Assembly (NCBI GenBank): GCA_965178125.1 | Contig: OZ237749.1 | Coordinates: forward strand, 1,054,001 to 1,118,000 | Direction of reading: 5' to 3' | DNA length: 64,000 bases | Source: Bilabrum cf. latius | Taxonomy: Eukaryota | Position numbers and translations under genes: made by a program | The notes under the pieces: model-generated | Database searches by the model: none | What the model was told of the DNA's origin: nothing | The model's input: only the letters and a program-made list of their open reading frames with translations | Shown here: positions 8,778 through 64,000 of the stretch, piece after piece | Layout of the letters: each line of letters begins with the position of its first letter | Numbering within the stretch: position 1 is the first letter of the stretch

Positions 8778-9066
8778 CCTTCGCAACCGAAATCTGCAGA
8801 TCGAATGGCTCGGTTGTCCGAAAGGTAGACTTTTAGGGATGTTTTAAAACCGTGATAAACGTGAACTTGTTTGGATATTACAGGCTATGCTTTTTGAGCT
8901 CTGTTTCGGTTGAGGCCGGGGTGTACTACTTCTCACAAGAAGAGCTTGGTATGGCCGCGGCGCCGGCGGCGGCCTGATTTCTTTACAAAATTAAACTACA
9001 CGAGAAGGGAAGATCAATGCTAGAAAAATCGATCACCGATTCACTAAACCATTCTTTTGGCTACAC

Positions 9067-11513: not shown

Positions 11514-11759
11514 ACCATCTCGCCCCCCACCTCCCTCGTCTTTCCCACCCATCAGAACCGCCGCTCCTGGTCGTGCCTCGCTGGACTTGCTCCACGACCG
11601 CTCACTACCCCCCTTCGCTGCGTCGCACATGCTCCTGCACCTCGAGCGGGTACTGCGCCCAACGCAAGACCTCAATCTCAAAGACCTCGATGGCCTCACC
11701 AGCAAAAAAGAAAGAGCTTGCAAGAACACATCACCCTCGAATCCCACCCACATAGCCGA

Positions 11760-36478: not shown

Positions 36479-36704
36479 CAATTCAACAAATTGGCTATTG
36501 CAGCCCTGCAGTACGAACACGCAGCAGCCACACGCTGTTGACCTTTCTCAGCAAAGCGCAGGAAGTGGTGCGGAACCAAAATCGGCGCCGCGTGCTTCGG
36601 ATTGGCCACGGGGCAGGAGAGCTCAATGATGAGCAACACAAGTACCGCATTGAGTAGTGGAACATCCACGTGCATATAACAGAGTCATACAATGCTGGAT
36701 CTGA

Positions 36705-39155
36705 TCAGAACCAGGCCCCCGTCTCTGCCAAGTCGACCTGCATCTTCTCCCGCCGCTTGGTGCCGGTAAGGATGTCCCGCAGCAACGAGGGCCTGCGGAC
36801 TGCCCTCCCATCGATCGCATCCGGGAGACTCCCGTCATCGGCGCTGGTGGCCTCCGTGGCCCCTTCGCTGCGTTGACCGGAGCCGTTCCCTGTCGACTGG
36901 CCCGCTGCCTCCTGCACGGCCTCACCGTTCTCCGCGATGATCTGCACCTCGCTGTCGCTGGAGCTATCACTGTCGCTGTCGCTGTCGCTGGAGCTATCAC
37001 TGTCGCTGTCGCTGGAGCTCCCTACCCTTCCCCCACGCACCTGTGCCCCCCCAGAGGACGAGGACGAGGACGAGAGAGACACCCCTCGCCCGCTCGAGGC
37101 AGACCCTGGCAGATGGTCATTCCCCGATGATGCACTGGCCTGCTTGGACTTAGCACGACCACCTTCCCCCCTCACACCCGCACCGATACCCTCGTCGCCC
37201 TCGGCTTCCTCGACCATCTGCTCTCCCCTCGCCTACAGCTCCCTGTCCAGCGCAAGCACAGCCGCCAGATAGCTCGTGCACAGATCATTCGAATCGCCCG
37301 CGGCACCCTGCTCCTCCACATCCTGCTGCTGCTTACCCTTCGCCCCCTTTTTCCCATTTCCTTTCCCCGCTCCATGCTCCCTCGCAGCCGCCTCAGTCTC
37401 AAAGGTATCGATGCGGGCCTCGAGGCTGGAGGCAGCCATGGCGAAGGCCCTCTTGGCCTCAAGCACGCGGTACGAATTCCGCCCGATGTCCTGGCCCGGG
37501 TCACAGGGACTCAGCACGCTGAGGCGCTGGCTAGCCGTCGGGTCGTACCTGCCCCTGTGCTGGCCGGCCTGGAAGGCGGCGGGCATGCTGGACTTGCTGT
37601 GCACCTTGCAATCGTGCCTGTCCACCCGCAGCACGTCACGCGCATACCTGTGCCTCCGCCCGAAGTAGTCCAGGAAGCTGTACAGGAGGAAGCCGAGGTT
37701 AAGGATCCGGTCGGCGGCCAGCACGGCGGGCTTGGAGTGCTTGGGCATCGCATCCGCCACTCCGGCGAGGCGGATGGCCCTGGCAGCGAGCTGCCGGTGG
37801 GGCATGAGGGAGGCTCCCTGGGGCACTGCAATGCGATGCATCACGTGCTGCATGGGCTCGTCCACCACTGCAAGCACGGCCTGCACCTGCGGCCCGCTGC
37901 CAGCCCCCGCCTCGCTTGCCCCCCCTGCAGCAGTCCCCCCTCGCACTCCCGCCGCCAGCGTTGATCCCGAGTCCACCGAGGTTGCCGCCAGCCCGGCAGC
38001 GTCCTTGGCTACTTGGTTAGCCACGGCGCGCACAGCCTTTGTCCTCTGCTTGTGGTGCTTGTGGTCCACCATGTTGGCGAGCTTCTTGAGTCGGGCCACG
38101 TGGAAGGTGACCATCACGGTGAGCAGGAAGCTGCCCAGCCCACCCGTGTACGTCTCCTGGAGCCCCCTCTGGTGCAGCATGTGCTTGAGCACCATGACCA
38201 GGGGCCGCACCTCGGGGTGCAGCCGCAGGAAGTCGGTCACGGTGGCGGAGGAGGCAGACCCGCTCGCGGCGTCGAAGCACACGTCTATCTTGATACCCGT
38301 GTGCGCGCACTGCGACTTGACGATGGGGATGCGGGCGGAGGCCACTGGCTCCACCACGGACACATCTTGACTGGACCTAAGGTACTTGGCGAGGCAGAAG
38401 ACAGCCTGGCTGGCCTCCATGCCCGCCCCGTGCACAACGAGGTCCCAGTCGCTGTGCGGGAGCGCCAGGCCAGTGGTGCGCGAGCCGAACACGCCCACCT
38501 CGCACCCTGGGAAGGCCCTCCTCACGATCCTGAGGTGTCTCCTGAGGGCCTCCCCCGCCTCCTGCCTCTCTCTCCTGGACGGAGCCATGAAGGCGCAGAA
38601 CTCGAGGACTTCCTCGTGCAGGCGGAGCAGAGGAGGCAGCGGTGGGTGGGTCGGGGGGGACTGCGGCGAGGCGGTGGACGCAGAGGCCGCCCCATCTCGT
38701 CGCTCCACGGGGTTGTCTTCTCCGAGCACCGGCCGCACCCAGAGCCTCTCCGCGGAGAATTGAGGGACGTGCAAGGGGGAGGCGCCGCTGAGTCCCTCGC
38801 TCTCTCGGGCCACTGCTTCCAGCCGCGCGAGATCGGCGGGCGCGAGCTCATGCCCCCCATCGCTTCCAGCGCTGCTGCTGCTGCCGCTCCCGCTGCTTGC
38901 ACTGGATGCAGCTGCTGAGGACGAGGACGAGGACGAGGACGGGGCCAGCATCGGATCCCCGCCGTACTGCGCATCCACACTGACAATAGCACGCAGCTAC
39001 TCCAGAGGAGGACCCATGCTTCCGGCCGCAGGGCCTCCCGGGACCAAAGCGGCCCCCTTCAGCGGCGGGGGCGGATCGTTCCCCCGAAGGGCAGGCAGCC
39101 CGGCCGTGCTTGCCTCCAGGCGGGGGACCTGGGGCTAGGGCTTGGCTGCGGGGCC

Positions 39156-39186
<31 letters not shown>

Positions 39187-39881
39187 GAGGCGCCACCCGG
39201 CCCTTGCACTGCAAGGGGTTGCAGTCGCACCACCCCGTCCACGGGTCCCTCCGCGCGCAGCACCAGCGGGAGTCCCCGCTCCCGCCAGCCACGCCACGGG
39301 GGGGGGCAGTCCTGCGGCTCGCTGCCGGCGGGCTCGACATGGTACTTGCGGTCGTATCGGGCATAGCTGCGGTAAGACGTCGGGCGAGAGCCGTCGCTAG
39401 AGTCTGTGTTTCGGCTGCGCCACTCGCCAGCACCAGAGCTTGCCGTTCTGCCGCTTGGGTGAGCACTACGTCGTCCGCGGGCTTTGGCTGCAGCCGCAGC
39501 AGCCGCAGCAGCCGCAGCAGCCGCCGCCGCTGCTGCAGCGGGCTACTGTATGCCATTCTTTCGCTCAAGCCGCCGTTTCTTTGACACCCGTAAAGCCTCA
39601 GAGCGCTGAGCGGACAAAGATGGCGACTGTGGCTAAGTCGCTGAGCTAGGGCTTTGCCATGAATTTCGTCCCCGTTTCGATGCCTTTCCTGGTCCTGAGC
39701 CAAGGAGCCCTCGTGATTGATTCTAAGATCTTCCACGCGATTCTGGGCGCGGTCCTCTTCCATGACTCGCTCCACCAAAGCCTCGAGAGCCGCCTACAAA
39801 ACGTGACTGTTCCCGAGGATTGTAGTGATTTGTGTACGGCCCACTCCTTCCGCCACCCCTTCCTCTTGAGTAGCCCGACAT
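36705..39881 (-). CDS. Non-canonical poly(A) polymerase, Trf4/PAPD5 (TENT4) family (~1058 aa with TAG=Gln)
   Basis: Motifs FGSRTTGLALPHSDWDLVV, ARIPIVK, IDVCFD, RGLQETYTGGLGSF, NLGFLLYSFLDYFG, DIGRNSY. The frame runs through six TAGs from an RGG-rich N-terminus (MSGYSRGRGGG) to TGA 36705. The start codon is inferred. Confidence 0.85.
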
Positions 39882-40019
39882 CGTTAATAACTGTTTATGC
39901 GGTACCAGACAGGTTCGTATGGGCCTTCTGCTGCGAATAATTCGAGTATGCTCCTCGAAAGCGGTTGCAACCGCATAATTGCCATCATGGTGCATGAGAG
40001 GCAATTTCAGTCCCACAGC

Positions 40020-42135
40020 ATGCAATCCAGGACAGAGTTCGAGGATGCTGTTAATTTCTTAAAGTCATACAAGCGACCAGCTGGCATGCGGGAGCCGACC
40101 AATGAAGAGAAACTGTACATGTATTCGCGGTTCAAGCAGGCAACCGTTGGTGATAACCCTAAGACATCGTACCCGCACAGTTACGCTTTATCTTTCCAGT
40201 CTATGAAAGAAAACAAGATGTGGTAAGCTTCGCCTCGCCTGAGCCTGGGTATTATGCTATCCGGTCCGAATTTTGCACTTCGTTTCCTTGTTCGTCGCTT
40301 ATACATGCAGGGAGGCCTGGGATGCAGTCCGTGGCTTGAGCAAGGATGCAGCTAAGTAGGAGTACGTCGATAGATTGGACAAAGACCTGCCTCTGTGGCG
40401 CACTGAGGTTGAAAAGGAGCGGCGATCATCCGATCAGCCGGCGGTCCAGAAATCAGAGCAGGCGGCCGCTGATACGCCAGACGCTGGCGGCAAGGATCCA
40501 GACTCACATACTGATGAAGCTAACTCTCCCAGCAGCATGATCCAGCGGGCTGGGGCGAGTGAGGTAGCGGAATTGCAAGACAGAGCGAGCGAGATTGCGT
40601 CAGCCCTCGCCAGCCAGCAGCCAGAGGTGGACTCTGCTGCCCCTGCCGCCACTCACTCGGAAGGCAGCGAAAGGCCAAGGCCAGGCCCAGACAAGAACAG
40701 CGCCGCGACTGAAAGCCACGGCTTTTCATCTCCGCGCCGCTCTCGCCGTCGCCCCCCTCAGGCTGCCACTGCCACTGCCAGCGCCTTCAGCCCGCTCCTG
40801 TCGCCCCAGGCTCTTCTCGGCACGGCAGCTTGGGCCATGGGACTGGGGGGCGACCCGGAATCAGAATCAGATAGCGACTCGGAATTAGAATCGACGGGAG
40901 ACCAGGAAGGCCACACCAGCCCCGAGGCAGGGGAGCATGGGGATCGGGATGGGCGGGGCCAGGGTCAGGGACAGGGGCGGCGTGCCAGAGGTGAAGGGAA
41001 CAGAGCCGCTGGCACTGGAAGAGCCAAGGTGAAGGTGAGGTTCGCGAGCCCCGAGGAGAGCCAGGCAGGGCCAGACCTGTCCAGCCCGGCGAGAACGGCC
41101 ACTGGTCCCCGCCGCGCCCCCGTGTCTGCGTCTGCTCGCACGCCCGGTCTGCCTGCCTGGCGCAGTGGCCGGGACGCCGTGCCCCTCACGCCTGCGTCCT
41201 CGGCGGCGGCCTCACAGGGCCGCAGGGGGCTGCCCTCCGTGGCTCCCAGCGAGCGAGGCATCCACGGGGGTGCGAGAGGAGTGACGAGTGAAGACGGGCA
41301 CTCGCCCCTGGTGCCTTCGCAGCTTCAGTCTAGGCTGGATCGGGAGGAGCAGGAGGAGCGGGGCGAGGGGGGGAAAGGCACCACCGGCACCGGATCGGCT
41401 GTGACGAGTGCGGAGAGCGACGCGGCCATGGCACTGCGACAAGCGACCATGGCGGTTCTCGCGGAGCTGGACGATTCCCTGGGGCTGGGGAGCAGCGTGT
41501 TAGGGACCGGCGAGTCCCCAGGGCCGGCAGGCAGGCGATCGCCGCGGAAGCCGGCTGCGGCTGCCTCGGCTGGTGGTGTTGAGGGCAAGAGCAGGGCTGG
41601 GGGCGCTGGCGATGTCTCGCTGGCGTCTGGGTGGACAGGTTCCGTGGCTACGGGGATCGACGGTGTGACGAGTGGACCCTCTGCGGTGCTTGCTCTGCGC
41701 TCCCTGTCGCCTGGGAGGCTGAGGCAGCTGGCGGCGGCGGTGCGCGCGGCCCAGCAGGCCAGGGGCGAGGGAAAGGGAGAGACAGAAGGAGAAGGCGGCG
41801 TGTGTTCGATGGTGAACGGTGAGGCGGGGGCGGGGCCGGGTGCCTCTGAGCGCGGGCTGCCCTCTGCGGCGAGGAGCGCGGTGAGGGCGGTGGCGGCTGC
41901 GGCGGACGAGGCGTGGCAGCGGCTGCCCACGCAGGAGCAGGTGCTCGATGCAGCGGGGGGCTGGCTACAGTGGCCGTATGTGCTTGTGCCCGTCGCTGTG
42001 GGGGCGGCCGTGTGGTGGGGCACCGGGGATGGGAGGGGCCGGGGAGGGGGAGGGGCGCCGGGAGGCAGAGGGAGGCGGGGCAGGGGGCCGAGGGGAGGAG
42101 CAGAGTGGCAGGAAGCGTATGGGGTGTATGGCTGA
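40020..42135 (+). CDS. Acyl-CoA-binding (ACBP) domain protein with C-terminal hydrophobic segment (~675 aa)
   Basis: Exons 40020-40222 and 40311-42135; intron GTAAG..TGCAG. FEDAVNFLK..EEKLYMYSRFKQATVGD..KMW|EAWDAVRGLSKDAAK*EYV with TAG at 40357. Ends at TGA. Confidence 0.87.
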
Positions 42136-42651: not shown

Positions 42652-45534
42652 ATGGAGTACGACGGAGGGCATGCGATCCCCGTTGATGGTGGAGCTAAGA
42701 AATAGGCATCTCTGATTCCGCCCAAGACGATCCGGGACGGGTCAGCGCCTCGTCGTTCTCACTCCAATCAAGATGATGGCTGCTGCTGGGTCAAAATTCG
42801 GATGCCAGGTCAGACAGTTCCGCGATCAGAGCCGATCGTGGAGCTAAATGCGGACGGTACTGCGCACTTCCAGTTTGAGCTGAAAGCCCCTGACAACGAG
42901 TTGCTTGACCGCCCGCTAGCCCTAAGGGCAACTGCAGTTGGATCCGATGGTACCTTGGATGCAACCATGGAGACTCCAGCACGCGAGGTAGAGAGTGAGG
43001 CGAGCAAGACCTTCTCGCTCGTTCGATTTAAGGTTCGTTTCTTGGGCAGTATTGACGAGGAATGGTACAAGGATGAGGGCGGCAAAGAAAATTGCATCGA
43101 GGCGGACGTATGTGTCGTCAACGCGGTCGGGCAGCGGCAGCCACTGGGCACACCGGTGCCCCTTGAGGTGCGCGCTCACTACGCGGCGAGCAAGCGCGCG
43201 GCAGGCACCTACTCATCCGGCGGTGCCTCGAGCATCATCAGCATGCTTCCCCTGCACGACGGGTCCACGTCTCAGCTGGACCCCGGCACGGGGGATGGGC
43301 GCCTGCGGGTGCGCTTCAACGAGGTCAGCTCCAAGCACGGCCAGCAACCCTTCTGCATCCGGTGCGGACCCGCTGCGGCCGAGGGTGACGTCAGGATGCG
43401 TCACATCGGGTGGGGCTATTCCTCGGGAGTGAAGGTCAAGAGCAAGCGGCACGGGGCCAGGCGCAAACAGGCCGCGGCCAAGGCGGCGCGGGCCAAGGGG
43501 CAGGCCATCCAAACTCCGGGGGAGGCGGCGGGTGCTGGTGTGGCAATGGGAGGGGGGACAGCTGCGGAGGAGGCGGCACGGGCCGTGGGTACCAGTGGGG
43601 CAGGGACAGGCGCGATGCCCAACGGAAGGGGCCCTGGTGCACCCTCGTCTTTGTCCTCGTCCTCGTCTGCATCTGCGTCGGCAGGGCTCGCAGGCGCCGG
43701 GGCAGCTGCTGGTTCCCACTCGTCGACGGGCAGCGTCCCTCCAGTGCTGGCAGCGGCGGGCCGCCTGCCCAGCCAGGGCCAGGTGGCTGCCTCCCCCCCG
43801 GAGCAGCCCTCCAGCAGCCCCGGGGGTGCGGCCAACGGCGTTGTGGAGTGGACGAACGAGGTGTTCGACCTGCTGGGCGCGCTGCAGTGGAGGGTCATCG
43901 GGTTCGAAACGGATGCACACGGGGTCCCTGACCGCAGGCTGCCGCTGCTGCGGTGCCCCGCCTGCTACAGGACGCTGTCCACCGTGGAGATGCAGGCCCA
44001 GATGGGCATGGGCATGGGCATGGGAGGGGCGGGCGGTGCCTCTGGGATAGGGAGGCACAACCGCGGGTGCCGCATCGAGAGGGCAATCAAGCTGTACCTC
44101 AGCGCCACAAAGGAAAACCTGCACGTGCTGCTGCGGCATATCCACGGCGACAGAAAGGTGCAGATGGCCATGCAGGCCATGGGAGCTAACGCGAATGTTG
44201 GCATTCAGCAGCAGCAGCAGCAGCAGGCCTCGGGACACGGGGAGCTCTTGCACGGGCGGGAGCAGGGGCACGGCGGCGTTGCCTCCTCGTCGTCTCGCTC
44301 GGCGAGAGGGGCTCGTGCGGCCCGTGGCAACGAGAGGGGACCGGCTGCGAGCGACGAGGAATACGAGGAGCCGGGGGCTGGGAGGGGCGCGGGCCGGAAG
44401 CGGGGGCGGGTGGAGGCGGGGCTGACGGGGGTGGGGGGAGGCAAGGGCAGGCGACGCCCGTTGCGGGCTGCCGCTGCTCAGTCTCGGGCTGCTCTGGCAG
44501 AGACGGTCAAGATGGAGAAGGAGGACTCTCTGGGTGTGGGCGGGGGCAGCTTCAGCAGCAGACAGGGCTTGGGGGAACAATCCTAGGGATAGGAGCAGGA
44601 GCCGACCAGCGCGCAAATGGCCATGGCGGCAGCCGCCTTCCCGTCCGCCTCTCCTGACGGGCTGGATGAGGCCTTCCCCTCCGTTGATGCAGATGTGGGT
44701 GGAGTTGGCTTAGTGGGGCCCGGGGTGAGGGGGTCGTCAAGCGGGGGAAGATATCCTACACCCAGCAGCATACAAGGGGGGGCGCCAAGTGCCTCCTCAA
44801 GCGTGATGGGCATGGAAAGGGGCATGGGCATGGGCATGGGTGCCAGCATGGGTGGCATGGGTGGCATGGGTGGCCCAAGCACCTCGGGGCAGGTCACACT
44901 TCCCCCGCCCCTGCCCTCCCGCGAGATGTCGCTCCCACGGGATGCACCGGTGCACAGTGCGCTGGATACCCTCAGCGGGGCAGGGGGTACGGGGGCCTAT
45001 GGCATGCTGCGGGGCTCTTCCGGGCTTGGGGGGCCCTACGTGGGGCGTGCGAGCATGTCCTCCCCGCAGGATGCTCGGGGGGGTGCGGGGTCAGGGATGG
45101 GGATGGGCATGGGGATGGGCAGCATGGGCCCGCCCAGCGCGGAGAGGGGCCAGTCCGCGGGGTCGATCGGGAGCCTGCTAGAGGGCTCGAGGGGACCGCC
45201 GCAGCTGCAAGCCGGGGCCAGCCTTGACCTCGGAGGCGCCTTGGGGTTCGCGCGCGGGATCTCCACGCTGTCCGAGACAGAGTCCGGGGGCCATTGGAGC
45301 AGGGGAGAGGCAGGCCCGCCCGGGAACGGGGGCAGGCGCAGCCGGGGATCCGGGTCAAGCATGAGTGGGATGGATGCCGAGGCAGAGTCGGGGCGGCAAC
45401 CAGATGGGTCCAGCGGGTACTTGCCGCATCCAAGCCCGTCTGCCAGCGCCGCCGGAGGTGATGACAGCTTGGGTGCTCGGCTGCAGAGCGAGCTGGTGCG
45501 CGGATTTAGTACAGGCTCGCAGCTTGATGACTAA
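42652..45534 (+). CDS. Uncharacterised protein with putative Ig-fold (CudA-like) DNA-binding domain and low-complexity tail (~960 aa)
   Basis: One frame from ATG 42652 through TAG 42703, 44584 and 44590 to TAA 45532. Globular segment WYKDEGGKENCI..RFNEVSSKHGQQPFCI..VKVKSKR. The family call is from recollection only. Confidence 0.6.
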
Positions 45535-45752
45535 AATACCAGGAGCAAAATGATAAAGCCTTACCCTAATTTCAGTGCATGTTGGGCTGAAGCGCTTCAA
45601 AACAGCGACTTGGTACGGCTCTGTGGAGATTAAAGGTAGATCTATGCGAGTGCATTGAAGAGCACATTTCATTATTAGTGGGATCCTCTTGGGGCACAAT
45701 GCAGTACAATTCAATGAAACTACATCATGGGATCAGCGGCTGGAGCACCAGC

Positions 45753-49314
<3,562 letters not shown>

Positions 49315-49501
49315 GTTGATTTCACAGCGCCTGAAATAATAAATTATAGCGTGAGTGCAGCAGATACGATTTTACGAAGCATTCGAATCTTTGCGGTTTG
49401 ATCAAGCAAATAATCAAGTTCAAGTCTGTTCACACGGCGAAACAGGGATCCTGCGCCGATATCGTTGGCATGCCTCGGCAACTATCAGAATCCAATCGCG
49501 T

Positions 49502-52500
49502 TCAAGACCCTGCTCCAGTTCCTTGGCTCGCGTCACAGACCTCGTACACCAATGAGGATCCGACTGGGGGGTCCGGATCGTCAGCGCTGTCCATAGAACG
49601 AGCTCGCCTGGAGATGGAGTTGGTCAGCTCGATGCGGCGCCTGCCAGCCGATCCAAGGCTCGCCGTGTAGTCACCACCGTCTCCAGCTTCACCGCGCCCG
49701 CCACTTTCCTCTTCGGAAGGAGCGCTCCCTGTCCCGCTCGCCGCCCGGCTGAGCCCGCTGAGATCCACCCTGTACGGCTCCAGAGACGCGTTGCCATCGT
49801 TCTCGTGCTCGTGCTCGCCCTCGGCCCGCATGGCGCGCCTCTGCACGCCCGATCCACCAGAAGAGCCCGACCTGGACCCTCTGGATCCGCTGGACCCCCG
49901 TGCGCTGCGCCCGCCGCTCACCCGCGACATGCCCTCCAGCTCGGCGGACCGACGGGAGCGCGCGGGAGACAGCGACAGCAGTACGTCCTTCCCGGCGCCA
50001 ACAGCCCCCTCGCGCCCCCCCACTTCGCTGTTCCCACGAGTGCCCAGCGCCGCACCAGACGCGCGTGCCTCCACCAACACGCCACGTGGGCTGTGGCCGC
50101 CGCCCCGGGCTCCCCTCTGGCCTGCCCGAGATCCAGATCCAGGCCTCGCCCCCTGCCCGTGCCCGTGCCTGTGCCCCTATCTGGAGCCGGTCACCTCCAC
50201 GGCTGCCTGTCCTCCTCGCAGCATGCTGACCCTGCGTCTCGTGTTCCCCGAGCTAGACGTGGACCCCTTGCTGCCTGTGTTATTCCCCGAACTGCCGGAC
50301 CGATCCCCCGACCGCCCCCCGGAGCTGCGAGTGCCGGTTCCGCTCGCGGCGCCGCCCGAGTTGGCAGTCAGCGCGGACTGCGAGTACCTGCTCCTGCTGC
50401 CCGACCGAGGGGTCCTCCTCCGACTCCGGCTGCCCGACCCAGTGCCCGTGCCCAGCCCACTCCCACTCCCACTCCCGCTGCGGCTCGGTGTCCCCGTGGA
50501 TGACTCGTCCGCGGCCTCCTGCAGGACAGAGAGGGCGGGCTCGCCGGCGATGGCCACCGACATATGTGGCTGCACCCTGCCTCGGCCGGACTGCGAGGGC
50601 GAGGAGGGCGAGGAGGGCTCCTTCATCCCTGCGGACTGATCCTGCCGCTGCACCTGCCTCTGGTCGTAGCCAGGGTCGTAATCATGATCATGGTCGCGCC
50701 CCCTGCCAACATCCGCCTGCACCTCCAAGTGGGCTCCAGCCCCCGCGCTCTACTCTGGGGCATGCAGCGCCATGTCGACACCGACACCGGCAGACCCAAC
50801 ATCAGGCTCGGCGCGCGACGGGCCAGCACCACGGCCAGCCCCAGTTCCAGTCCCAGCCCCGCCGCCCGCAGATGCAGTTGCGTTTCCGGCCAAGCCGGCC
50901 AGCCCGCTCCTGCCCAGCCCCGCCTGCACCAGGCGGCCAGTGTGTTCTGCATCGATGCTGCCCTGCCGCGGCCTGGACCTCGCTCGTCTAGCCCGGCCAC
51001 CGCTCGCGGGTGCCTCGTGGCTCTGATGCCTGGACAACCGCTGCTGCTGGCCATGCTGCTGCGAGTCCGTGCTTCTCAGCGAGCCCCGAGACGGATGAGC
51101 TGCCCCCGCATGTGAGTGCAGCCCCCGTCCTCCCGTCTTGATTCCCCCCTTCCTCTTCTCAACGCCTTTTGCAACGGAGCTGCCTCGGCTCCCGCGCACA
51201 GGTTGCTGCACAGAGAGGCCATGCCCACGCGCCGAGGCGCTGTGCCCTGCGGCCACTGGAATGCCGCCATCGCGGCTCATGCTTGTTTCTGCCAACCTGT
51301 CTACTGCAGCGCCACACCTCCCCCTCTCTCTCTCCCCGCTCGGGAGCAGCGGAGACATGTCCAGAACTGTGCCCGGCAGCACTTCGGCAGTGCCGTGGCG
51401 GTGATCTCCCGCTTCTGGCAGCAAGTACCCCTCCATGGGGGCATGGGCACCCCCCCGCTGCTGGTGACCCCCACCCAGGGGCATGGGCTCAACGCCGGTC
51501 AGCTGCATCGTGGCCTGGTCAGCGCCGCCCGTCTCCCGCCAGAATGCGGGGCTCGCCTCCCTCTCCCGCTCCAGCACGCTGCTGTTCCCGATGTTGTCAG
51601 AGGCAGACACGCCGCCCAGATCGGGGGCCCCGCCAGCACCCGTCACCACGTTCTCCATGCTGGCAGGCAGTGCCCCATGGCCCTGGCCCGGCGCCGCGTC
51701 CCGCCCCTGCAGCCGGGCGAGTTCGTGCCCCATCTCCTGCCGCGGGCTGGGACCCACCCCAAGCCCAAGGCTCCGACTGCTGCTGCCTCGCGTGCGCCGG
51801 TCCCCCATCCCGGCGCGCGACAGAGAGAGCGCCTGGGTCTATGAATGCGAGTGGGAGTTGGACTGGGACTGGGACTGGGACTGGGAGAGGGAGGACCCCA
51901 CGCCGCTGTGTGCCCCCGCACTACTGCCCACCGCGCTCACAGAGGACCGGGAGGAGGACGAGGAGCCTCCCCCGCGACCGCCGCCGTGCCCGTGGCCAAG
52001 ACCGTGTCTCTGCAGCAGACGAGCCTGGGCGTCCATCGGGCTTTCTCCTTGGCGGCCCGCTGTTCCCTGAGCTGACCCCCTGCCGCTGCCGAGCGGGCTC
52101 CGCCTCGCCGTTGCGCTTCTCCCTCTCCCTCTCGCCCTTGCCGACTCGGTCCGGAGGTGCCGCAGGGAACTGCCCCTGCCCCCTCGACTGCCGCTCCCAC
52201 GCGACCTGGTGCTGAGGCTGGCCCCGCCCGACCGGCTGGTGGCCCGCGAGCCCAGCGAGGCGGTGGCCGTGGTGGCCCTGCCCCTGCCCGTGCCCGGGCT
52301 GGCGCCAATCCCGATCCCTGGGCCCATGTTGAGGGACCTGTGCGAGCTGGGCGGAGACAGCTGCGGGGAGGCAACCGGCGAGCCAGGGGTCACCTGCACC
52401 CCCTCGCCGACCGCTCCCGCCCCACGGACTGCACCGTCTGACGGTCGAGTGCAAGCGGATGAAACACCCTCCTCCTCCTCCTGCTGCTATTTGCTGTCCT

Positions 52501-55500
52501 GCGGGCTGTGCACCTCACTGGCGTCACCAGCGTCTCCCATGCGCCGCCTGTTCTCTTGTGCCTCTGCACCTACCCCTGCCTCTGCCCCAATGAATGTAAC
52601 CCCGCTTCCCTCCCCCGACTCTTCCTCCCAAGCCGCCTTACCACCCACCCACCCAGCTGCATTCCCAGAGGCCTGCCGCACCGCCACTGCTGCCAGCCCG
52701 CCGCCAGCACGAACCCCCACAGGCGTTCGAATACCTGCGCGTGGATCTGGCAGCCTCATCGCGCCATGCGATGATGACCCGCGCTCTCCCTCTCCCTCTC
52801 CCTCTCCCTCTCCCCCCTGTATCTGCGGCCGGCTCTCATGCAGCGAGCCTCTCGCCCCGGGCCCGCGGACCCCCCTGCTGCCACGCCCAGTGGTCGTCAG
52901 CGGCATGCCCACGCCGGGCCCTGCCAGCCCCCGGCCACTGCCGCTCCGCAGCACGCCCCTCAGCGCGCCCCCGTGCCTCGCCGGCCCGTGCCCCTGCACA
53001 GCGAGCGGAGTGCCCCAGCGCACGCCCACCCCGATCGAGCCTCCCGCGGGCTCTGCCGACCCGCCGGTCACCATTCCTCCGGTCCCAGTTGAGGCAGGCA
53101 GCATGCCGCTGCCCTCCCACCCCTCACCGCCCTCTCGCTTGGGACTCAGGCCCGACCCGGTTGCCAGCAGCTGCACGGACCCAGCCGTCAGTGACTCAAC
53201 ACCCCCTGGCAGCAGTGAGGGGGATGACCCGCCGGACACCATCGGCTGGGCCCCCCTGCGGCGACCCCCCCTTGACCCCCCCGCCGACCCCCCCGCCGGC
53301 CCCGAGGTGCCCCGCTGCACCACGTCCCGGTCGATGCTGGTGGCACGCCGCCTGCCCCCCTGCGCCACCCCCGAGCTAGACCTGCGGCTGGCAAGGGACT
53401 GGGGACCCCGCAGTGGGGACGTGGGAGGAGCCCCGCGCGAGGAGGGGGAAGGGAAGGACCCCGGCGCCGAGCCCTGGTGTCCCCTGTGCGCCGGCCCCTC
53501 CTGCCCCGGCAACAGCAGCCCGCCCTCTCCGAAGCCCCCCTTGCTTCTCGAGGAACCGTTCGAGTCCGAGGAGGTGCTCTTCACATCTCGCGGGCCCGTG
53601 CCTGCTGAAGCGCCCGAGCTCTCGCGCACGCGCTCAACGGACACCACAAAGGCAGGACGACCCATCGCCGAGACGTCCCTGGGGGCCGCACCCACGCCCG
53701 GCCCAACGGCAGCGCTGTCCACGTGCACACCCCCGGGTAGATCGGTCGCGCTCGGCTGGGTCCCCGACCCGCCCCGCCCCTCCGCAGTTCCCCTCGACCG
53801 AGAGCCCCACTGCGGCGTGCCCCCCGACCCGCTAGACCCGCTGGCTTGGTGCCCCCTCGATTCTCGGTGAGACCCGCCCCCGCTGCCGGCCCCTCCGCTG
53901 TGGTCGGAGCCGCGCTCCGCAGAGCCCCAGGCGTGCCCCGTGGTCTGCACCCCGCCCGACTGCAGCAGGAACCCACTGCCCGCGCCCCCGTCGCTCGCAC
54001 CCGCTGGCCCCGGCGCTATGCTCCCAGGGCTCATCATGCCCACCCCGGAGCTGGCCCCGCGAGTGGGCCCCGGGTCCTCCTCCGCCGACCCGCCCTGCAT
54101 GCTCCTCTTGTCCTGGCTGTGCATGCGGCCCTTGCCCAGGGAGCCAGAGGCCCCCCTCCCTGTTCCCCGCATGGACCGCGAGTAGCCCGAGGCGACCGAC
54201 TCGGCGGCCAAAGACATGACACCGATGGTGGAGTTGCGGTCAATCAGCCGCCCGTCGCTGGCCTCGTGTGACCCGGACACCTGCCCCGGGCGCAAGCGGT
54301 GGACGGAGGAACCCCCGCTCTGCCCCCGGCCCCTGCTCCGTGGGCCGGGGAGGTCCGTCGTGTCGGTGACTCGACGGCGGAGCTCCCGAATGCCCGGCGG
54401 CCCGTGGGAGGACGAGTCCACGCCTCCGCGACTGCTATCCACAGAGGAGCCGGCCGTGCCACGGCGGCCCGCGGAATGGTCATGCGGCCTACCCCTCTGC
54501 AGCTGTGGCTGGGGCTGGGGCTGGTGGCGCAGGCGAGCGCTCTCCCTGCTCTCGTGTCTGCCCACCCTGCCGCTGCTGCGCTCGCTCTGTCCATCAGACT
54601 CCATGCCCCCGCCCTGCCCCTGCTCGGCCAGCGCTCTGACCCTCTCTGCATGGGCCAGCGCGGGGCCGTACGGGGGCAGCGAGGCCCGGGCCCGGGCGTG
54701 GGCGTGGGCGGCACCTGCCCCTGCCCCTGCCCCTGCCCCTGCCCCTGCCCACGCCCTGCCCGACATCTGCTGCAGGTGCACGTGCGACCCAGTGGCCACC
54801 TGGCTGCGGCGGCTCGAACTCTCTCGCCTATTGCCGCTGCCAGTAGGCGCGAGGACACCTGAATCCCCCCGCCCTACCTCCCCGCTCTCCCCTTCTCCCT
54901 CGCCCATGGTCTCGCCCGCCGTGCCATCCCCGGGCTCCATGCCCATGCCCATGCCCACGCCGTGCGACTCCATCTCGACCTCGATCTCTCTCGCGCGGTC
55001 CTCCTCGGCGAAGTAGTCCTGTTCCATGGGCCCGTGCTCCCTGGTTCGGTAGTTGTACTCTAGGAAGTGCACCTGGTCCTGGTCGCTGATGGCCTCGGCG
55101 CTGTCCGTCTGGTGCTCGGGGTCGTTGAGCAGCATGTCGGCCATGTTCTTGTCCTGCACGGGGTGGCTGTTGAGCTTGGCCGTGTTGATCTTCATGGCCA
55201 CGGGTGTCTCCCTCCTCCTGAGAGCCTCGAAGTCCACGTCCTGGAACCACGGGTGCTCGTAGATCTCCCACACCCCGCGCGAGCCGAGCCGATACTTGCG
55301 GTTGCATATCAGCATCTTCTGCACGAAGTCCACCGCCTCTTTGCTGCTGGTCTCCATGTGCCTCGAGTAGACAAACTCTTCCGCCCTGTCCTTGTCCGCT
55401 CGCCGCTCCTGCGCCGAGATGAGCACCCGCCTGGCCTGGTCCATGCTCAGCCGGCGGTCCCTCGGGGGGACGAACATGGACATCTTCACCAGACGCTTCA

Positions 55501-57287
55501 TGTTGTGCTTCGAGGGGCGGTACGGCCTGTGTCCTACGAGCATCTGGTGCGTGGTTATGCCCAAGGCGTAGTAGTCCGCCATGTGGTCGTGCCTGTGCCC
55601 CTGCATGAAAATCTCGGGGGCCATGTACGGGCTGCGGGGAGAGAACAAGGGGGCGACCGAGCAAGCAAGCGAGAAATGGGGGCAGGATAATGTATTCGGG
55701 TATGCTACGCGGCTAATCGCCCGAGCAACGTCAGCCGCGAATCAGCATTGGGAGCGCCCTCGGCAGCATGAGCCGGCTCCAAGCAGGCAGGAACACTGGC
55801 TCCATGCCGAGGGACGGACTCGCTCCAATAGGCTTCTGGCGCGGGAATGGCGATTATGTGAGTGTGTCTTGCTCTTGGGACGGTCTATCGGCGCTCCATG
55901 CCGGGGCCCCGTCAGCACAGTCGCCTCGGCATCGAGCTGACCCACCAATGGACCTGACCGCATCTCGAGGGGAGCGGTCGCTCACGGACCGCCGAGCCGC
56001 AGCGACCGCGCCGACAAACCTTAACCAAGGATTACCGCCGGTTTGACACCTGTCTTTCCGTAGTCATACTGCCTTGTCAAGAAACCGATGCCACGGCATT
56101 GACCAGAATGCGGAATGTACTCCAGATCGCACCTCGGGCGAGCGAAGCATTGCCGGCAGGGCGGAAGTCCTCAGTCAGAACCAAACGCGAGCCAAAACAT
56201 CAAATGCAAACAATCGCTACTCCTACTAGGACCCTGTCTCACCGTGTTCCAGAGGTGTTGCGGCATTCGCCATTGTCATCCATAGCGACCGAAATCCCCA
56301 AATCCGTCACCTTTATGTACCCATCCTCGTCCAGAAGTATGTTCTCTGGCTTGACATCCCGGTGAAGTACTCGCTGCCGATGCATATAATCGAGGCAGAG
56401 CAGGATCGAAGCTGCATACTATTTGGCCTAAGCCTCCTGAAACATCCGATCCGTCGTCTACGTCAGCTGGTAGTGCAAATCTCCGCCCAGGCAAGCGTCC
56501 ATGACCAAATAAAGATACTTGTCATCCTAAAATGCGTAGTGCATGTTCACAAGCTGAGGGCAGCGAAGCCTGCGATAGGGAAGGGCACGACGCAAGCCGG
56601 CGGAATTCTTGAGGTCGGTTCTCTGTGCTACAGCTTGCGGCCACTAAGATCAGTGGGGGCACACCAGCAGCATTTATGCATATTCTTCCGATGCGCTGTC
56701 TTGCGCAGCTAACAAAACGTGCCACGCGCGCCGCACTGGCAGCTCAGTGGTGTTGGAGGTACGAGAGGCCTCTCACCGTTCCAGCAGCTGTCTTTCGTTC
56801 GACACCATCTCTACGTGTTTCCTATTTATCACAGTATGTTTCTTGATGCTCTTCATGGCGTACAGCCGGTTGGCATCCGTCCCGGTTTGCTTCCGTACGC
56901 ACGTAACCTTGCCAAATCCTCCCTGCAATGACTTGTGCTTGGTTTGCCGCAAGGTTCACGGGATGTGGGACGCGTGCGAAAATCAAACTAGTCTACTGCA
57001 AAGCTATGCAGGCCTCCGCCGTGTCTAGCGCAGCATCTACCGCTGCAGGCTGGGCAGGCTAGGCAGGCAAACCTGCAGAATTGCAAGGTAGGGCTACTCA
57101 CTTGTCCGACCACGCGTTCGATTGTGAAATGTTCCTTTGAAACATGATGCAGATCTGCGATATGTGGCAGGAAGCCGCATGAGCAGAAGAAAAGGGTCCA
57201 AGCGGCGGTGCACCCTGTGGCATCCGGCGGTGGCAGCTGAGGCAGCGACTTACCCGGCTGTAGAGCACTCGACGAACCGCAGCCCAT
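49502..57287 (-). CDS. AGC-group Ser/Thr kinase with MGCGSS acylation motif and very long disordered tail (~2229 aa with TAG=Gln)
   Basis: Exons 57287-57254, 57154-57102, 56922-56777, 56569-56243 and 55631-49502 (6690 nt, divisible by 3). Motifs [49 protein letters not shown]. The tail continues across four TAGs to TGA 49502. Confidence 0.88.
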
Positions 57288-57501
57288 CAGCTATAGTCAA
57301 AAGGTAAACCAGCACAACTCCACGAGAATTTATGAAGCTGCACTCTTTTTATAGTAGGTTGCTTTTTTGACAGAGTCTCACCCCAAGCCGTTGTGCCCGC
57401 CGGATCCGCAAAATGCACTGCACTGTGAAGATCTACCTCGACCAGTTTGGCGCAGCCTAGCTCTACTCAACTCGGTAGAACAAAATTGAAATGGACTTAT
57501 A

Positions 57502-58962
57502 ATGTTTCCATCATCCTTTCAAAGGATGGGAAGTTCCTTCTGTATCGGGATAACTCGCCGGTACGCCACGAGGCTGATGAGTACCAGGACGCTGAGCCGC
57601 GTATCTGTCGAGGCATTGTACAAATATCGCTCCAACGATGTATCCAAGTGTATGAAGCAGGCAATGGGAGACTGGTGAGCCGTTCCGTTCAGGTTCGAGT
57701 TGGGCGTTCCGTGCAACTGCGTTCTATCTCATATGTGGCTAATACTGAATCACTGGCCGTCAACACGCCGCAGGCCACTAGACACGTATGTGCCCCACCT
57801 TGACAAAGATTGGATCTTGTTCTAGATACCCACCAAATGGTACGTGGAGTCATGCGGGGGATCGCTGGCCGGTGACGAGCCGGTTCATGACAGCGTCTGG
57901 GCGTGCGCCTCTCGTCGAGGCGCCGTCGTGGTGATCAACTCGCGGCCAGCAGGGCTGCCGGCGTCAGTATCACCGTGGGAGCACCCAGTGTTTTCGCTGA
58001 CGCAGCTGCTCGACGCGGCTGGGTCGCCCTCTCTCCCGCAGGGTGCAGTGCCGGCCAGGGAAGAGCTCCCTCTGTTGGTGGGCCCCAGCTCAGGCCCCGG
58101 CCCGTCTGCTGCCACTGCTAGTGAGCCCAGGTGGTGCGAGAGACTGCCTGGTGGACTCGGCGGTGGGAATTCGCGCATGCCCGTGGAGGGCAACGGCAGC
58201 GCTGACAGTATGGGTGCTGGTGCGGGTGCAGGACATGCAGGTGCAGGTGCGGCCCCTGTGCTCCGACTGGGCTCGCTTGAGGCGGATGCGGTGCGCGTGA
58301 TCAGCTCATGCCTGGCGCAGAGCGTCAATCTGCAGTACTTCGAGGGGCGGGTGGATCGCATGTAGGGGCAGGGGACGGGGATGGGCGTTGGGCCTGGGCT
58401 GGGGGCAGGCAGCGCGGGCCTGAGCATGGGGAAGGGGCAGGGGCAGCAGGGGCAGTACGCCGAGGCAGGGGATGCGGGTGGGGACAGAGCCAGCCTGTCG
58501 GCTTCGATTCTGAGGGAGGGTGGGCTGCTGGCACGGGCGAGGAAGTGGGTGGGGGAGGCCCTCGAGGCGGGGGGCGGGGGCGGGTCGGCTGCGGTGTATC
58601 GGCAGCTGGGGGCAGCGAATGAGATCGCGAGCCACGTGCTGCTGAGTGGGCTCCGCAACACCGTGCGGCCGGGGTCTACTGCGTGGAAAGACGAGCGGTT
58701 CAGCACGCTGCAGGAGCTGCTGTGGGAGGACCAGGACCTGGAGGAGAGATACGAGGAGCTGGAGAGGAGGCTCTCCTTCGTGACCGAGGGCGCCAAGTAC
58801 GAGCTGGAGGTGGGCAAGGACGCGAAGAGCATCTTCCTGGAGAGAGTCATCGTGGCGCTCATCGCGGCCGAGCTGGTGCTCTCGTCGGTGAGCGCGGGGC
58901 TGCCCGGGCAGGCGATGGACTTCGCAAGGGGTTTGCTAGAGGGGGGCGGCGGCGGGGGCTGA
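57502..58962 (+). CDS. DUF155 / RMND1-Rmd1-like protein, probably mitochondrial (~453 aa)
   Basis: Exons 57502-57674 and 57774-58962 (intron GTGAGC..GCTAAT..CGCAG). ISSCLAQSVNLQYFE, DLEERYEELERRL, LERVIVALIAAEL. Internal TAG at 57823 and 58363. Ends TGA-TAA. Confidence 0.75.
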
Positions 58963-59060
58963 TAATGGACTTCGCAAGGGGTTTGCTAGAGGGGGGCGGC
59001 GGTGGGGGCTGATAATGGACTTCGCAAGGGGTTTGCTAGAGGGGGGCGGCGGCGGGGGCT
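58915..59060 (+). repeat. 50-bp tandem repeat (~2.9 copies) spanning the stop codon
   Basis: ATGGACTTCGCAAGGGGTTTGCTAGAGGGGGGCGGCGGCGGGGGCTGATA starts at 58915, 58965 and 59015. Confidence 0.92.
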
Positions 59061-60125: not shown

Positions 60126-60335
60126 AGGAGAAACTATTCACCAATGAATGGCGGGCTAATGTGACTTTCGCTGTGTGTAGCATTCCCGCTCCGGGTACCG
60201 GTATACTTCGGAAAGTTTTGCTCGTAACGGAGGAGGTAGAGAGCCATTGCAGGAGCAGCCGGTAAATCTTGCATTTTATTTAGTTTGGAAGCGCTCCTCT
60301 GTCGTTTGAACAAATTTGGTTGCGGTTTGATGCAG

Positions 60336-61029
60336 ATCCGACCACCGAGAACGCCAACAGGTCATCTGGAACGCGGTTTTTTTCGCAGTCGAATCAGGCG
60401 CAAACGCAGGATCCAGGCTGTCAGTTGTAACGGCTGATGGCACGCGGGATACGTTCTTTGTATCCAGCGATGTATAGTTGGAACATTTGAAGGACGAGGT
60501 ATCAACGAAGCGGCCTGTCTTCGTACCTGAACTGATGAAAATCTCCGGATGGGAAGACAGAGACGACCCAATCGCGAACGGTGCCCTGGATGACCTAGAC
60601 TGGACCAAGCACAAGGTTGTTGTGGCGGTCGGGTGCAGCATCGTCTCGGCAGAGGACAAGGATGGGACGCTGAGCGTGGAGCTGAAGTCTGCCACTTCGG
60701 GTCGCGATCGCCAGTACGAGGCTCTAGTGGTGGCGACAGAAGCGAGCGAATCCGCCAGTATTGCCCCGTGGGCAGCAGCTGCTGATGCTGCCGCTGATGC
60801 CAGTAGTGCTGTTGCTGATGGTGGTGATGGTGGTGTTGACAGGGAAGAGGGTGATAGCGAGAAAGAACAAGAAGAGGACGATGATGATGACTCGAATAAT
60901 GATGGAGAGGAACAGGGGGAGGAGGAGGAGGGTGATGACTCTTGTGGGCTCTAGCCGCCATCGGAGGAAGCGAACAAGGCGATGCAAGCACTGGTCCAGC
61001 GCATGTCCAAGAGAAGGACACTCAAGTGA
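60336..61029 (+). CDS. Unknown protein, paralogue A (probable last exon, 5' end unresolved), acidic tail
   Basis: Open frame after a TGCAG acceptor at 60335, through TAG 60475 and 60952 to TGA 61027. Homologous to 61480-62064. Confidence 0.5.
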
Positions 61030-61479
61030 CTGTGAGCACCGGTGCTGCCACTACCAGAGGTTGGGTGTGGATCGATGTCTACCTCGGAGACATGAGCCGC
61101 TAGAATGGTGTAAATGCAATGCACATATACGGATGCGCTGTTGAGCGGGTTCGCCGCCGGCGATTCCGGTTCCTCGGCGGCGCGAGCCTCGAGGTTCCGT
61201 TCGCCGACGGCGTTTTGCTTGATCGCCCCGGGTCACAAGTAGTTACTCACGATGGCGGGGGTACCTGGTAAGACCATCGCATTGATTCTAAGTCACTGAT
61301 CATATTTTGAAGCTTCCGAGTGTTGGTGCAAACTCAATGGTTGCGTTGTCTGGATCTGTAACACCCGAGAACGCACTGAACTTCCCCATTCATGCTCGGT
61401 CACAAATAGCCTACAAGTACGGATCCCGCAAGCCTTTATTTAAAACGCAGAAGAAGCGAAAGCAGGGGAGGGTTCGCGA

Positions 61480-62064
61480 ATGAACGGCGTCATGAAAGAC
61501 GGCACACAGGATAGATTCTACCTGCAAGGTGCAGATGACTTGAAGGATATTAAGGCAAACGTCTCGGTCTAGAAACCGGTCTTTGTGAGAGGAGTGAAGA
61601 AAATCTCCGGATGGGAAGACAGAGACGACCCAATCGCGAACGGTGCCCTGGATGACCTAGACTGGACCAAGCACAAGGTTGTTGTGGCGGTCGGGTGCAG
61701 CATCGTCTCGGCAGAGGACAAGGATGGGACGCTGAGCGTGGAGCTGAAGTCTGCCACTTCGGGTCACGATCGCCAGTACGAGGCTCTAGTGGTGGCGACA
61801 GAGGCGAGCGAGTGCAGCTGGGAGGGCGGCGAGCGCGGGTTCGGTGGTGCTGTGATGCAGAGGCCCATCGAGCAGCGGCCGCTGGACATGGGTCCCATGA
61901 TGATCGAGCAGCGGCCGCTAGACCCAGGCCCCATGATGCTCGAGCAGCGGCCGGCAGAGCCAGGGCCCCTAATGATGGAGCAGCGGCCGGCAGACGATGC
62001 CCCATTCGAGCTCGAAGGAGAGTCCGGCCCTGTTGCCGGGGACAAAGGGGATTCGGAGCTCTGA
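61480..62064 (+). CDS. Unknown protein, paralogue B, with 12-aa EQRPxxxGPxMx repeats
   Basis: Frame from ATG 61480 through TAG 61570 to TGA 62062. 36-bp repeats at ~61870-61995. Start uncertain. Confidence 0.5.
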
Positions 62065-62153
62065 GGTGGTCGGTGGTGGTCGGTGGTTGGTGGTTGGTGG
62101 TTGGTGGTTGGTGGTTGGTGGTCGGTGGTACTAGTAGGTGGTCGGTGGTCGGT
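62065..62153 (+). repeat. (GGTGGTY)n simple repeat
   Basis: Run of GGTGGTT/GGTGGTC units between convergent gene ends. Confidence 0.9.
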
Positions 62154-62252: not shown

Positions 62253-64000
62253 TCACAGGGCTGTTTCGTGCACCACCTTGATGGAATCGATCTGCTTGCT
62301 TCGCTCCTGCTCAGCTCCCCGCAGCAGAGGCCCCTCCCGCACCACCACGAGCTACACCGCCGAGTGCCTGAGCCCCGGCAGCCTCCTCTTGACCAGCGAG
62401 TGCCAGGGGGGCCCGTCATGAGCGAGGCACCTCTGCATGTCCCGGTGCGACCGCATCGGGTCCAGGAGCAGCAGGAGAGCCTCCAGATCAGGGCCAGGGC
62501 CAGAGCCAGAACCACCGCTGGAGCCTCGGGCGCTCCGCTTCCCAGCATGCGGGGCGGGGTGCGAACAGTCGCGGATTCCAACTGGATCTGTCAGGGACCC
62601 AGTTCCAGCAGACGGGGCATGAGTAGGTGCAGATGCAGGGGCAGACGGTCGGGCTGCCGAATCCAGATCACTCGGTGGGACTGCCCCCCTTCCCGCCCAC
62701 TTGTCCAGCGTGCTGGCGCTTGGACGAGGCACACGAAGAGACTAGCCAGGGCCGGGTCCACTGCCTGCTCCATCCCGTGCCCCCGCCCCTGACCCCACGC
62801 TACCGGGTCGGATGATGCACGGCGTGTTGCTCGTCAGTCGCCGCAGGGCACGAAGCGATCCCGAGCCCTTGAGGCGGCAGCGCGCCTGCACCCCGATTGC
62901 GGTGCGGCTGTGGCCATCGTGCTGCAAGTACACCGGGAGCGTCCTCTGCTGCTGCAGAACAGGGCCGGCATGGGCAAGCCCCACTGGCACAGGCGCCTCC
63001 AGCTGGCTGGCAGGCACGCTCTCCAGCACTTCGACCTCGCTATCGCTATCGCTATCGCTGCTGCTACTAATGCTGCCCACTTGGCCTGCCTTAGAATCAT
63101 CCAATGATCCGTCTTCGGCATCACTCGTCACATCCACCACTGGCACATGAGCGCGACTGGACGTCGGACTGCCGCTGGATGCCACCCTCGGGGAACACAG
63201 ATCGATCACGACTCCCCTGCTCTCCTCGTCCGCTGGGACCTCCCCTGGCCTAGACCTACCGCTCTCTGCACCGGCCGAGGCACCATCTGTTCCCCGGACT
63301 ATTTTCTCCCCATAACCACGGTCCCTACCACTGCTGCTGCCAGTGGCATGGCACCGCCACCCGCCAAAGTACCCCCAGAGCAGGTCGAGCAAGTGCTCCA
63401 TCGGGTCCCTCGCAGGGCTCGCCCTCCCGCGAGCCATCCCCCCACCGGCCCCCTTCACCTTCATCTTCATCTTCGCTGGCCGCGCCCTTCCGAACCCTCT
63501 GAGCTGCCGTAGCCCCTCCTTCCAGTCCACCAGCTCAGCGCCTGCCTTCCTCGCGCCTGCGATGCTGTACCCCCCACTCGCACTGGCACCGGGTGAGGAA
63601 GAGGAGGAGGAGGACGAGGAGGAGGAGGACGAAGAGGCTGAAGGTTCGGCTGCATGCACGTCCACCACCACCGCGTCGATCCTAAAGGACCGCAAGAGTG
63701 CTGCTACATCAGTAGCCCCGATCCATGCGGCGTGGCCCCGCTTGCCCCGCAAAGAGCCGCCGAAGTGCGAGGCGCCCTCTTTATCGTAGCCGAGCGACCA
63801 GGCTCGCTCAATCCAGCCCTGCAAGCCGAGCAAAGTTGGTACCCTGCCACTTCCATCAAAAAGGGTATTGCGGTACATAGGTTCTTGCATCATAGCAGAG
63901 CAGATGATCTGTACGTTTCTGTACCCGCAGGCCCACGCAGCTGACGATGCGTCGGACCTTTGAGTAAAGTGGCTGGTGCAAGGCTTTGCCAGCACGAAGG
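62253..64000 (-). CDS. Peptidase C78 family, ZUP1/Mug105-like deubiquitinase (5' end outside window)
   Basis: WACGYRNVQ (catalytic Cys), IERAWSLGYD, WIGATDV, YLQHDGHSRT. The LLLLDP motif is reached only by reading through TAG 62742. A further TAG lies at 62352 and the frame ends at TGA 62253. Confidence 0.82.

Follow-up and report, generated by a model that had tools for sequence, protein, structure and literature searches.

In the 64-kb stretch of DNA analysed here (contig OZ237749.1 of the assembly filed under Bilabrum cf. latius, positions 1,054,001 to 1,118,000; hereafter the window, in which positions are counted from its first letter), the triplet TAG is a sense codon. This holds for at least nine genes, and there is next to no doubt about it. 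Judged by homologous proteins, TAG very likely means glutamine (Gln), and TAA is probably still a stop. The window has a guanine plus cytosine (GC) content of 52-74% along its length and short GT-AG introns, and is nuclear eukaryotic DNA. When all this is put together, we regard it as likely that the window belongs to a eukaryote with a GC-rich nuclear genome in which UAG specifies Gln, UGA is the usual terminator and UAA is probably a stop. The pattern is probably that of NCBI table 15, the Iotanema type, and not that of code 6, in which UAR (UAA and UAG) codes for Gln. Under the standard code the window appears broken; with TAG as a sense codon it becomes a dense array of long genes. A preliminary description of the same sequence had read TAG as Gln from sites in four protein families. 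That reading is upheld here; the description did so without taking up the phenylalanine (Phe) column at 56419 in a kinase gene or the question of whether TAA is reassigned as well.

That TAG is a sense codon is apparent from the frames. If TAG is made sense, the open reading frames (ORFs) of at least 300 amino acids rise in number from 36 to 64, their total from 17,572 to 38,832 amino acids and the longest of them from 1,567 to 4,541. Making TAA sense instead yields 38 such ORFs and leaves the longest unchanged. The longest frame free of TAA and TGA extends over 4,540 codons; in 30 block shuffles no such frame exceeded 1,221. Seven ORFs hold 59 TAG, 0 TAA and 0 TGA in their coding frame, while their off-frames contain 59 TAG, 17 TAA and 187 TGA (+1) or 64, 32 and 197 (+2). 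TAG, about as numerous in frame as off-frame, is under no extra selection in frame, where TAA and TGA are wholly excluded. Altogether nine ORFs carry 63 in-frame TAGs in 12,809 codons, that is, about 11% of the Gln-type codons (63/594). The TAG-bearing ORFs have Pfam matches to HECT, Pkinase, B_lectin, MTPAP/PAP and C78, and these domains lie downstream of TAGs. In the HECT and C78 genes, TAGs are found 30-32 codons upstream of the true stops. Conversely, none of the window ORFs with a recognisable C-terminus uses TAG as its terminator. Single-copy genes also bear in-frame TAGs; since, in addition, TAG is the only stop triplet that interrupts frames, neither decay nor repeat-induced mutation nor misassembly can be the cause. 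The genes and ORFs concerned are the following.

744-8780, minus strand: lectin-like giant gene A, about 2,680-2,700 codons, 26 TAG, B_lectin match at 1.8e-16
11514-12986, minus strand: decayed partial copy of the HECT gene 3' end, between lectin genes A and B
13361-21460, minus strand: lectin-like giant gene B, tandem paralog of A with 97.7% identity, 28 TAG
22925-36547, minus strand: giant HECT ubiquitin ligase gene, a single exon of 4,540 codons, 16 in-frame TAG, ends in TGA
36705-39881, minus strand: Cid1/MTPAP-type nucleotidyltransferase gene, 6 in-frame TAG, none of them in the conserved domain, ends in TGA
39985-42135, plus strand: ACBP-domain gene, two exons, TAG at 40357-59, ends in TGA
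42700-45534, plus strand: ORF F, of no known family, 3 TAG, ends in TAA (45532-34)
45753-49314: beta-tubulin pair, head to head, 0 TAG, both ending in TGA
49502-57287, minus strand: STK32/YANK-like AGC kinase gene, five exons, 8 TAG, ends in TGA
57775-58962, plus strand: RMND1/DUF155-like gene with a weak Pfam match, 2 in-frame TAG, ends in TGA
62253-63998, minus strand: ZUFSP-type peptidase C78 gene, cut by the window end, TAG at 62742-44 and 62352-54, ends in TGA

The kinase gene (Pfam Pkinase, 1.2e-28; best solved chain STK32A, 1.5e-23) is assembled from exons at 57254-57287, 57102-57154, 56777-56922, 56243-56569 and 49502-55631 on the minus strand. The joined coding sequence runs for 2,229 codons from ATG (MGCGSSS...) to TGA, with eight TAGs and no internal TAA or TGA; its C-terminal part is a low-complexity tail of 2,000 residues. 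All four introns (57155-57253, 56923-57101, 56570-56776 and 55632-56242) have GT-AG borders and are supported by spliced contigs. The fourth exon contains in-frame TAGs at 56527-29, 56458-60, 56428-30 and 56419-21, the first of them in the string LVNMHYAF[TAG]. Its limits, its four TAGs and its AGC-kinase string had been given correctly in the preliminary description, the GT-AG borders and the spliced contigs being in agreement with them. The same description called the HRD and DFG motifs intact, which is true of the first (HRDVKPEN); the second reads DLG. A PYMAPE motif is also seen.

Transcript support was drawn from contigs of three public runs (X5, X6 and X8, from two studies); low or missing read depth over introns was not used as evidence. 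Two contigs, record 11 of X5 and record 18 of X6, span exon 4 with 0 differing letters and keep all four TAGs. Because the letters of exon 4 are identical in spliced contigs, the TAGs are present in the spliced RNA and are not edited.

The residues that homologs carry at the TAG positions of the kinase were tabulated on 26 orthologs of 58-69% identity, after 16 of 42 matches with less than 55% identity had been left out. At 56527 the residue is Q in 24 of 24 orthologs, the remaining two having no coverage there. The column at 56428 is also mainly Q (Q19, V4, R2, W1), and that at 56458 is mixed, with H10, Q7, N3, S2, R2 and K2.

In the HECT gene, the domain PF00632 is matched at 4.4e-43 over residues 4228-4533. 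The active site reads AHTCFF[TAG]IELPEY, with the TAG at 23018-20 exactly as it had been described earlier, and it aligns with the HTCF motif of the solved HECT chains E3A, NEDD4-like, TOM1 and pub2. The TAG adjoins the catalytic Cys, and in the 11 homologs used for the HECT columns (four full-length and seven short) this position is occupied by Q6, S2, T2 and R1. The closest ortholog, at 41% identity, has HTCFAQIELPEY at its active site. The window holds a second witness, the decayed HECT fragment at 11514-12986, in which CAG stands opposite the TAGs of the gene at 24098 and 23531, and TAG opposite those at 23123 and 23018. The fragment is 86-97% identical, in pieces and with gaps, to the 3' end of the gene. 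Its place between the two lectin copies suggests that a piece of the HECT gene was carried along in the original tandem duplication.

Only the homologs entered the profiles, in which eight of the ten kinase and HECT columns fall on match states; the two insert-state columns were skipped. The preliminary description had proposed such a tabulation on Pfam profiles and named Leu, Tyr, Trp and Glu as the residues that would speak against Gln. With the homolog sets used in place of Pfam profiles, Q is favoured, the log-odds summed over the eight columns being +10.5 bits for Q, +0.8 for E, +0.7 for H, -2.0 for S, -5.7 for Y, -10.7 for W and -11.0 for L, so that all four of those residues fail. As a control, the 21 canonical CAG/CAA codons of these alignments were scored as Q; they average 0.98 bits and go down to -2.06. 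For the TAG columns, likewise scored as Q, the mean is 1.32 bits and the lowest value -2.02.

As far as homology can tell, the lectin genes are the most direct evidence for Gln. The sugar-binding motif of B-lectin domains is QxDxNxVxY, which here takes the form QxDGNxVxY. It occurs in six copies per paralog, and its first position is CAG or TAG in 12 of 12. Paralog A has three CAG and three TAG (6978-80, 1539-41 and 1296-98) at this position, and paralog B two CAG and four TAG (19622-24, 14156-58, 13913-15 and 13616-18). One and the same motif copy begins with CAG in A (999-1001) and with TAG in B (13616-18). Solved lectins have Q at the first position in every aligned motif.

Outside homologs of the lectins, sought among 1.84 billion representatives, have Q at three TAG columns in 14/15, 99/107 and 81/82 cases. 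A fourth column is divided (E16, Q14, K6) and a fifth is variable. Summed over the five lectin columns, Q reaches +15.2 bits and the next residue, H, -5.1, with E at -9.8, W at -11.6, S at -11.8, L at -13.4 and Y at -13.6. When all 13 columns of kinase, HECT and lectin are added up, the sum for Q is +25.7 bits and that of the best rival about -4. The lectin query comprised the last 1,200 residues, of which the roughly 880 that precede the C-terminal lectin domains found no homolog among the 150 best of 1,997 matches; most TAG columns of this query are therefore uninformative.

The two paralogs have 23 TAGs in common. They differ by 87 synonymous and 95 other codon changes, a proportion that indicates constrained coding sequence. 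Where the lectin pair, or the HECT gene and its fragment, are cleanly aligned and differ at a TAG, the other copy has CAG five times and TGG once. The tandem duplication that gave rise to the pair measures about 12.6 kb (300-8998 and 12917-21644, 97.7% identity). B-lectin domains are situated at both ends of each gene, and BLAST detected no internal repeats in lectin A.

Two further families had been cited in favour of Gln, on the strings DAAK[TAG]EYV at 40357 in the ACBP gene and SAV[TAG]LVVV at 62352 in the C78 gene. Both strings are present, the second in a ZUFSP-type peptidase. The ACBP gene consists of exon 1 (...LYMYSRFKQATVGD...KMW) and of exon 2, which starts near 40312; the fold is real only when the upstream exon is added, and the TAG at 40357-59 then lies in the last ACBP helix. 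Five solved chains have E, Q, K, Q and A in this column. At the ZUFSP site, Q is present in one alignable chain, in a weak stretch. These two sites are compatible with Gln and add little; of the four families, kinase and HECT do favour it, and the claim for ACBP and C78 was overstated.

TGA ends ten of 11 ORFs (eight independent ends when duplicates are set aside), and TAA ends one. In frame, TAA occurs 0 times in 12,809 codons, as opposed to about 10 expected if it stood for Gln (P ~1e-4). The expectation is derived from the CAA/CAG ratio of 68:463, the A-ending share of Gln, Lys and Glu codons being 13-14%. The single TAA end is that of ORF F. Beyond it the GC content drops from 0.65 to 0.43 (0.39-0.46 over the next 61 codons). 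The stop of the convergent tubulin gene is 218 bp away, and reading on past the TAA would come within 36 nt of it. Because of the 0 TAA against about 10 expected, and because ORF F ends in TAA, a reassignment of UAG only is to be preferred, with reasonable confidence, over code 6 with very rare TAA.

Of the competing explanations, this UAR-to-Gln code (NCBI table 6) fares best. It assumes that TGA is the sole stop and that TAA is rare as a consequence of GC richness. Ulvophytes using that code have TAG much commoner than TAA from GC bias, according to PMC2984419; TGA at 10 of 11 ORF ends would be just what such a code produces, and the only ORF ending in TAA belongs to no known family. The code should nevertheless have left about 10 TAA among the reading frames, where 63 TAG and no TAA are counted, and the triplet itself is available, since the off-frames of the seven ORFs hold 17 and 32 of it. 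Treating TAA as sense extends no gene meaningfully, and what follows the TAA of ORF F is AT-richer and reaches to within the mentioned 36 nt of the tubulin stop. The UAR-to-Gln code is thus unlikely here, though it is the alternative that deserves most attention.

Several observations weigh against the reading of TAG as Gln with TAA as a stop. The kinase column at 56419 is F in 25 of 26 orthologs and L in the other. The HECT column at 23531 is E in nine of 11 homologs, with one A and one D. Four further HECT TAG columns are variable, and most other TAG columns say little. The lectin homologs were chosen with a query in which TAG had been translated as Q, which may have caused a slight bias towards Q at two columns; the N-terminal columns at 6978 and 7032 lie outside that query. 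As to the transcripts, the RNA nature of X5, X6 and X8 is a guess, X5 being marked 'probably DNA', and the argument is one from spliced joints only. The basis for TAA as a stop consists of one ORF end in a protein of no known family and of its absence from 12.8k codons. Finally, ARAGORN finds no tRNA genes in the 64-kb window.

Two of these points lose force on inspection. The HECT fragment of the window itself has CAG at 23531, which removes most of the discordance of the Glu column. For the Phe column, the minimum among canonical Gln codons matches that among TAG codons, so that an outlier of this size is within the range of ordinary Gln codons. The Phe at 56419 is part of an ARFY motif at the start of helix E, and Gln would be an unusual substitution there.

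TAG might also lack a dedicated decoder, being either read through by near-cognate tRNAs that insert a mixture of Gln, Tyr and Lys, or used as sense or stop according to context. A position occupied by Phe would tolerate Tyr better than Gln, and the highly expressed tubulin avoids TAG (0 of its 17 Gln codons), both of which would suit readthrough. However, TAG is equally frequent in and out of frame (59 versus 59 and 64) and makes up about 11% of Gln-type codons, and a protein of 4,540 codons could hardly be made with 16 inefficient events along its length. Context dependence agrees poorly with the TAGs that precede the HECT and C78 stops by 30-32 codons, and with the absence of TAG as the terminator of any ORF whose C-terminus can be recognised. 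Decoding of this kind is very unlikely.

Still less probable is a dedicated decoder with another residue, such as Glu (its meaning in peritrichs), Leu (in a rhizarian), Ser (reported for Scotinosphaera), Tyr, Trp or Lys. Each candidate can point to isolated positions: Glu to 23531 with its 9/11, Tyr to 56419, where the Phe of 25/26 orthologs would suit it, and Trp to the one lectin pair with TAG opposite TGG. Yet the summed log-odds of E, S, Y, L and W are far below the +10.5 and +15.2 bits of Q, and both the kinase column with Q in 24/24 and the Q of the B-lectin motif speak against them. The last alternative, that the TAGs are untranslated products of pseudogene decay, C-to-T damage, repeat-induced mutation or assembly error, or are restored to CAG by U-to-C editing, can practically be set aside: five of the six clean paralog differences at TAG are indeed C/T transitions and two TAG-rich genes are recent duplicates, but the frames are interrupted by TAG alone and never by TAA or TGA, single-copy genes are affected, the paralogs are under constraint, the same letters recur in independent runs and TAG is kept in spliced contigs.

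For codes of this type, decoding by a tRNA-Gln(CUA) and an altered eRF1 are described in PMC5304391 and PMC11687900. By analogy, the organism would possess a tRNA-Gln(CUA), which a single mutation separates from tRNA-Gln(CUG) and which would read UAG and not UAA; its eRF1 would no longer recognise UAG. The eRF1 gene is not in the 64-kb window. Judged from the frames and alignments, UGA terminates and UAG is translated as a Gln-like residue in many genes.

Several other features of the window may be recorded. The beta-tubulin copies (45752-47286 and 47780-49315) are 99.5% identical, lie about 500 bp apart and have a GC content at third codon positions of 0.91, the maximum of the window. Compared with solved chains, beta-tubulin gives no clue to the lineage, several tubulin entries differing in score by no more than about 1%. 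Upstream of the RMND1-like gene, an intron at 57674-57772 is present in spliced contigs. The TGA of that gene is directly followed by TAA, and an 18-base stretch, GGGGGCTGATAATGGACTT, is repeated together with the stop about 50 bp downstream (58960-59025). Two small ORFs (60331-61026 and 61444-62061), paralogous to each other and without a known family, have a 217-bp stretch in common at 98.6% identity, and a spliced contig links 61266 to 61450 (GT..AG) in the same region. Immediately 3' of the TGA of one small ORF is a (GGT/TGG)n microsatellite (62065-62120). Its summed contig depth exceeds one million in one run, whose data probably contain it in very many copies. Sequence nearly identical to positions 47600-57400 of the window is present in runs filed under four organism labels in four studies, all of 2025. 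The organism may live with others as a symbiont or parasite, be eaten by them or contaminate their samples, or may simply have been filed under several names. The closest homologs are metagenome proteins; among 20 homologs looked up by cluster, the one that carried an organism name was a distant chrysophyte HECT. A metagenome scan for the DNA of relatives, made with a generic kinase pattern, gave kinases of 27-58% identity among the 80 loci listed, none of which has the ortholog motif.

A code in which UAG means Gln is rare but already described. In Iotanema spirale (Fornicata), UAG is Gln and both UAA and UGA are stops, UAA being the primary one (Panek et al. 2017, PMC5304391). The window resembles this non-ciliate in that UAG alone is very likely reassigned, to Gln, and UAA is probably kept as a terminator. 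The mechanism predicted for Iotanema, a tRNA-Gln(CUA) that stems from tRNA-Gln(CUG) together with a changed eRF1, would be shared as well. Unlike in Iotanema, TGA accounts for 10 of 11 ends and TAA for one; moreover, this genome is GC-rich and has spliceosomal introns and very long low-complexity genes, and nothing links it to fornicates. Among ciliates, Hartmannula sinica, Trochilia petrani and Protocruzia tuzeti have UAG as Gln and prefer UAA as a stop (McGowan et al. 2024, PMC11687900). These three likewise reassign UAG only, to Gln, and use it widely as a sense codon. In contrast to ciliate macronuclear DNA, the window is GC-rich, contains 13-kb single exons and long tandem duplications, and has none of the hallmarks.

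The UAR-to-Gln code 6 occurs in ulvophyte green algae, Amoeboaphelidium, hexamitids, oxymonads and many ciliates (PMC11687900). With this code the window shares TAG as Gln and TGA as main stop, and TAG far outnumbers TAA in GC-biased ulvophytes (PMC2984419). The window departs from code 6 in that TAA is absent from all 12,809 in-frame codons and terminates one ORF. A TGTAA-type 3' signal, typical of chlorophytes, is not enriched in the 3' regions of the window. UAG and UAA are also decoupled in the rhizarian exLh and in uncultured phyllopharyngean ciliates, where UAG is Leu, and in Scotinosphaera, where it is Ser (PMC11687900). The residue differs here: Leu scores -11.0 and -13.4 bits and Ser -2.0 and -11.8 in the kinase-HECT and lectin columns, versus +10.5 and +15.2 for Gln.

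No report of a GC-rich non-ciliate with UAG alone reassigned to Gln was found in the literature searched, which covers few subscription journals. We tentatively suggest, as a possibility with somewhat less than an even chance, that the window represents an unreported independent origin of a code with UAG as Gln and decoupled from UAA, in a non-ciliate whose GC-rich genome bears introns. If so, it would be the first such code with UGA, and not UAA, as the main terminator, and the first for which an assembled genome would allow the changes in tRNA-Gln(CUA) and eRF1 to be read directly.

According to PMC5304391 and PMC11687900, changes of the nuclear code outside ciliates are known in about a dozen lineages, and codes in which UAG and UAA are decoupled in a handful, namely Iotanema, one rhizarian, Scotinosphaera and a few ciliates. 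Annotation by the standard code would break most of the long genes of such a genome, the 4,540-codon HECT gene being cut into stretches no longer than 1,567. Another example for which genomic DNA exists would let the changes in the suppressor tRNA and in eRF1 be read. It could also test whether UAG is captured more easily in genomes that are GC-rich and favour UGA as a stop, and could date the change and place the lineage in which it arose.

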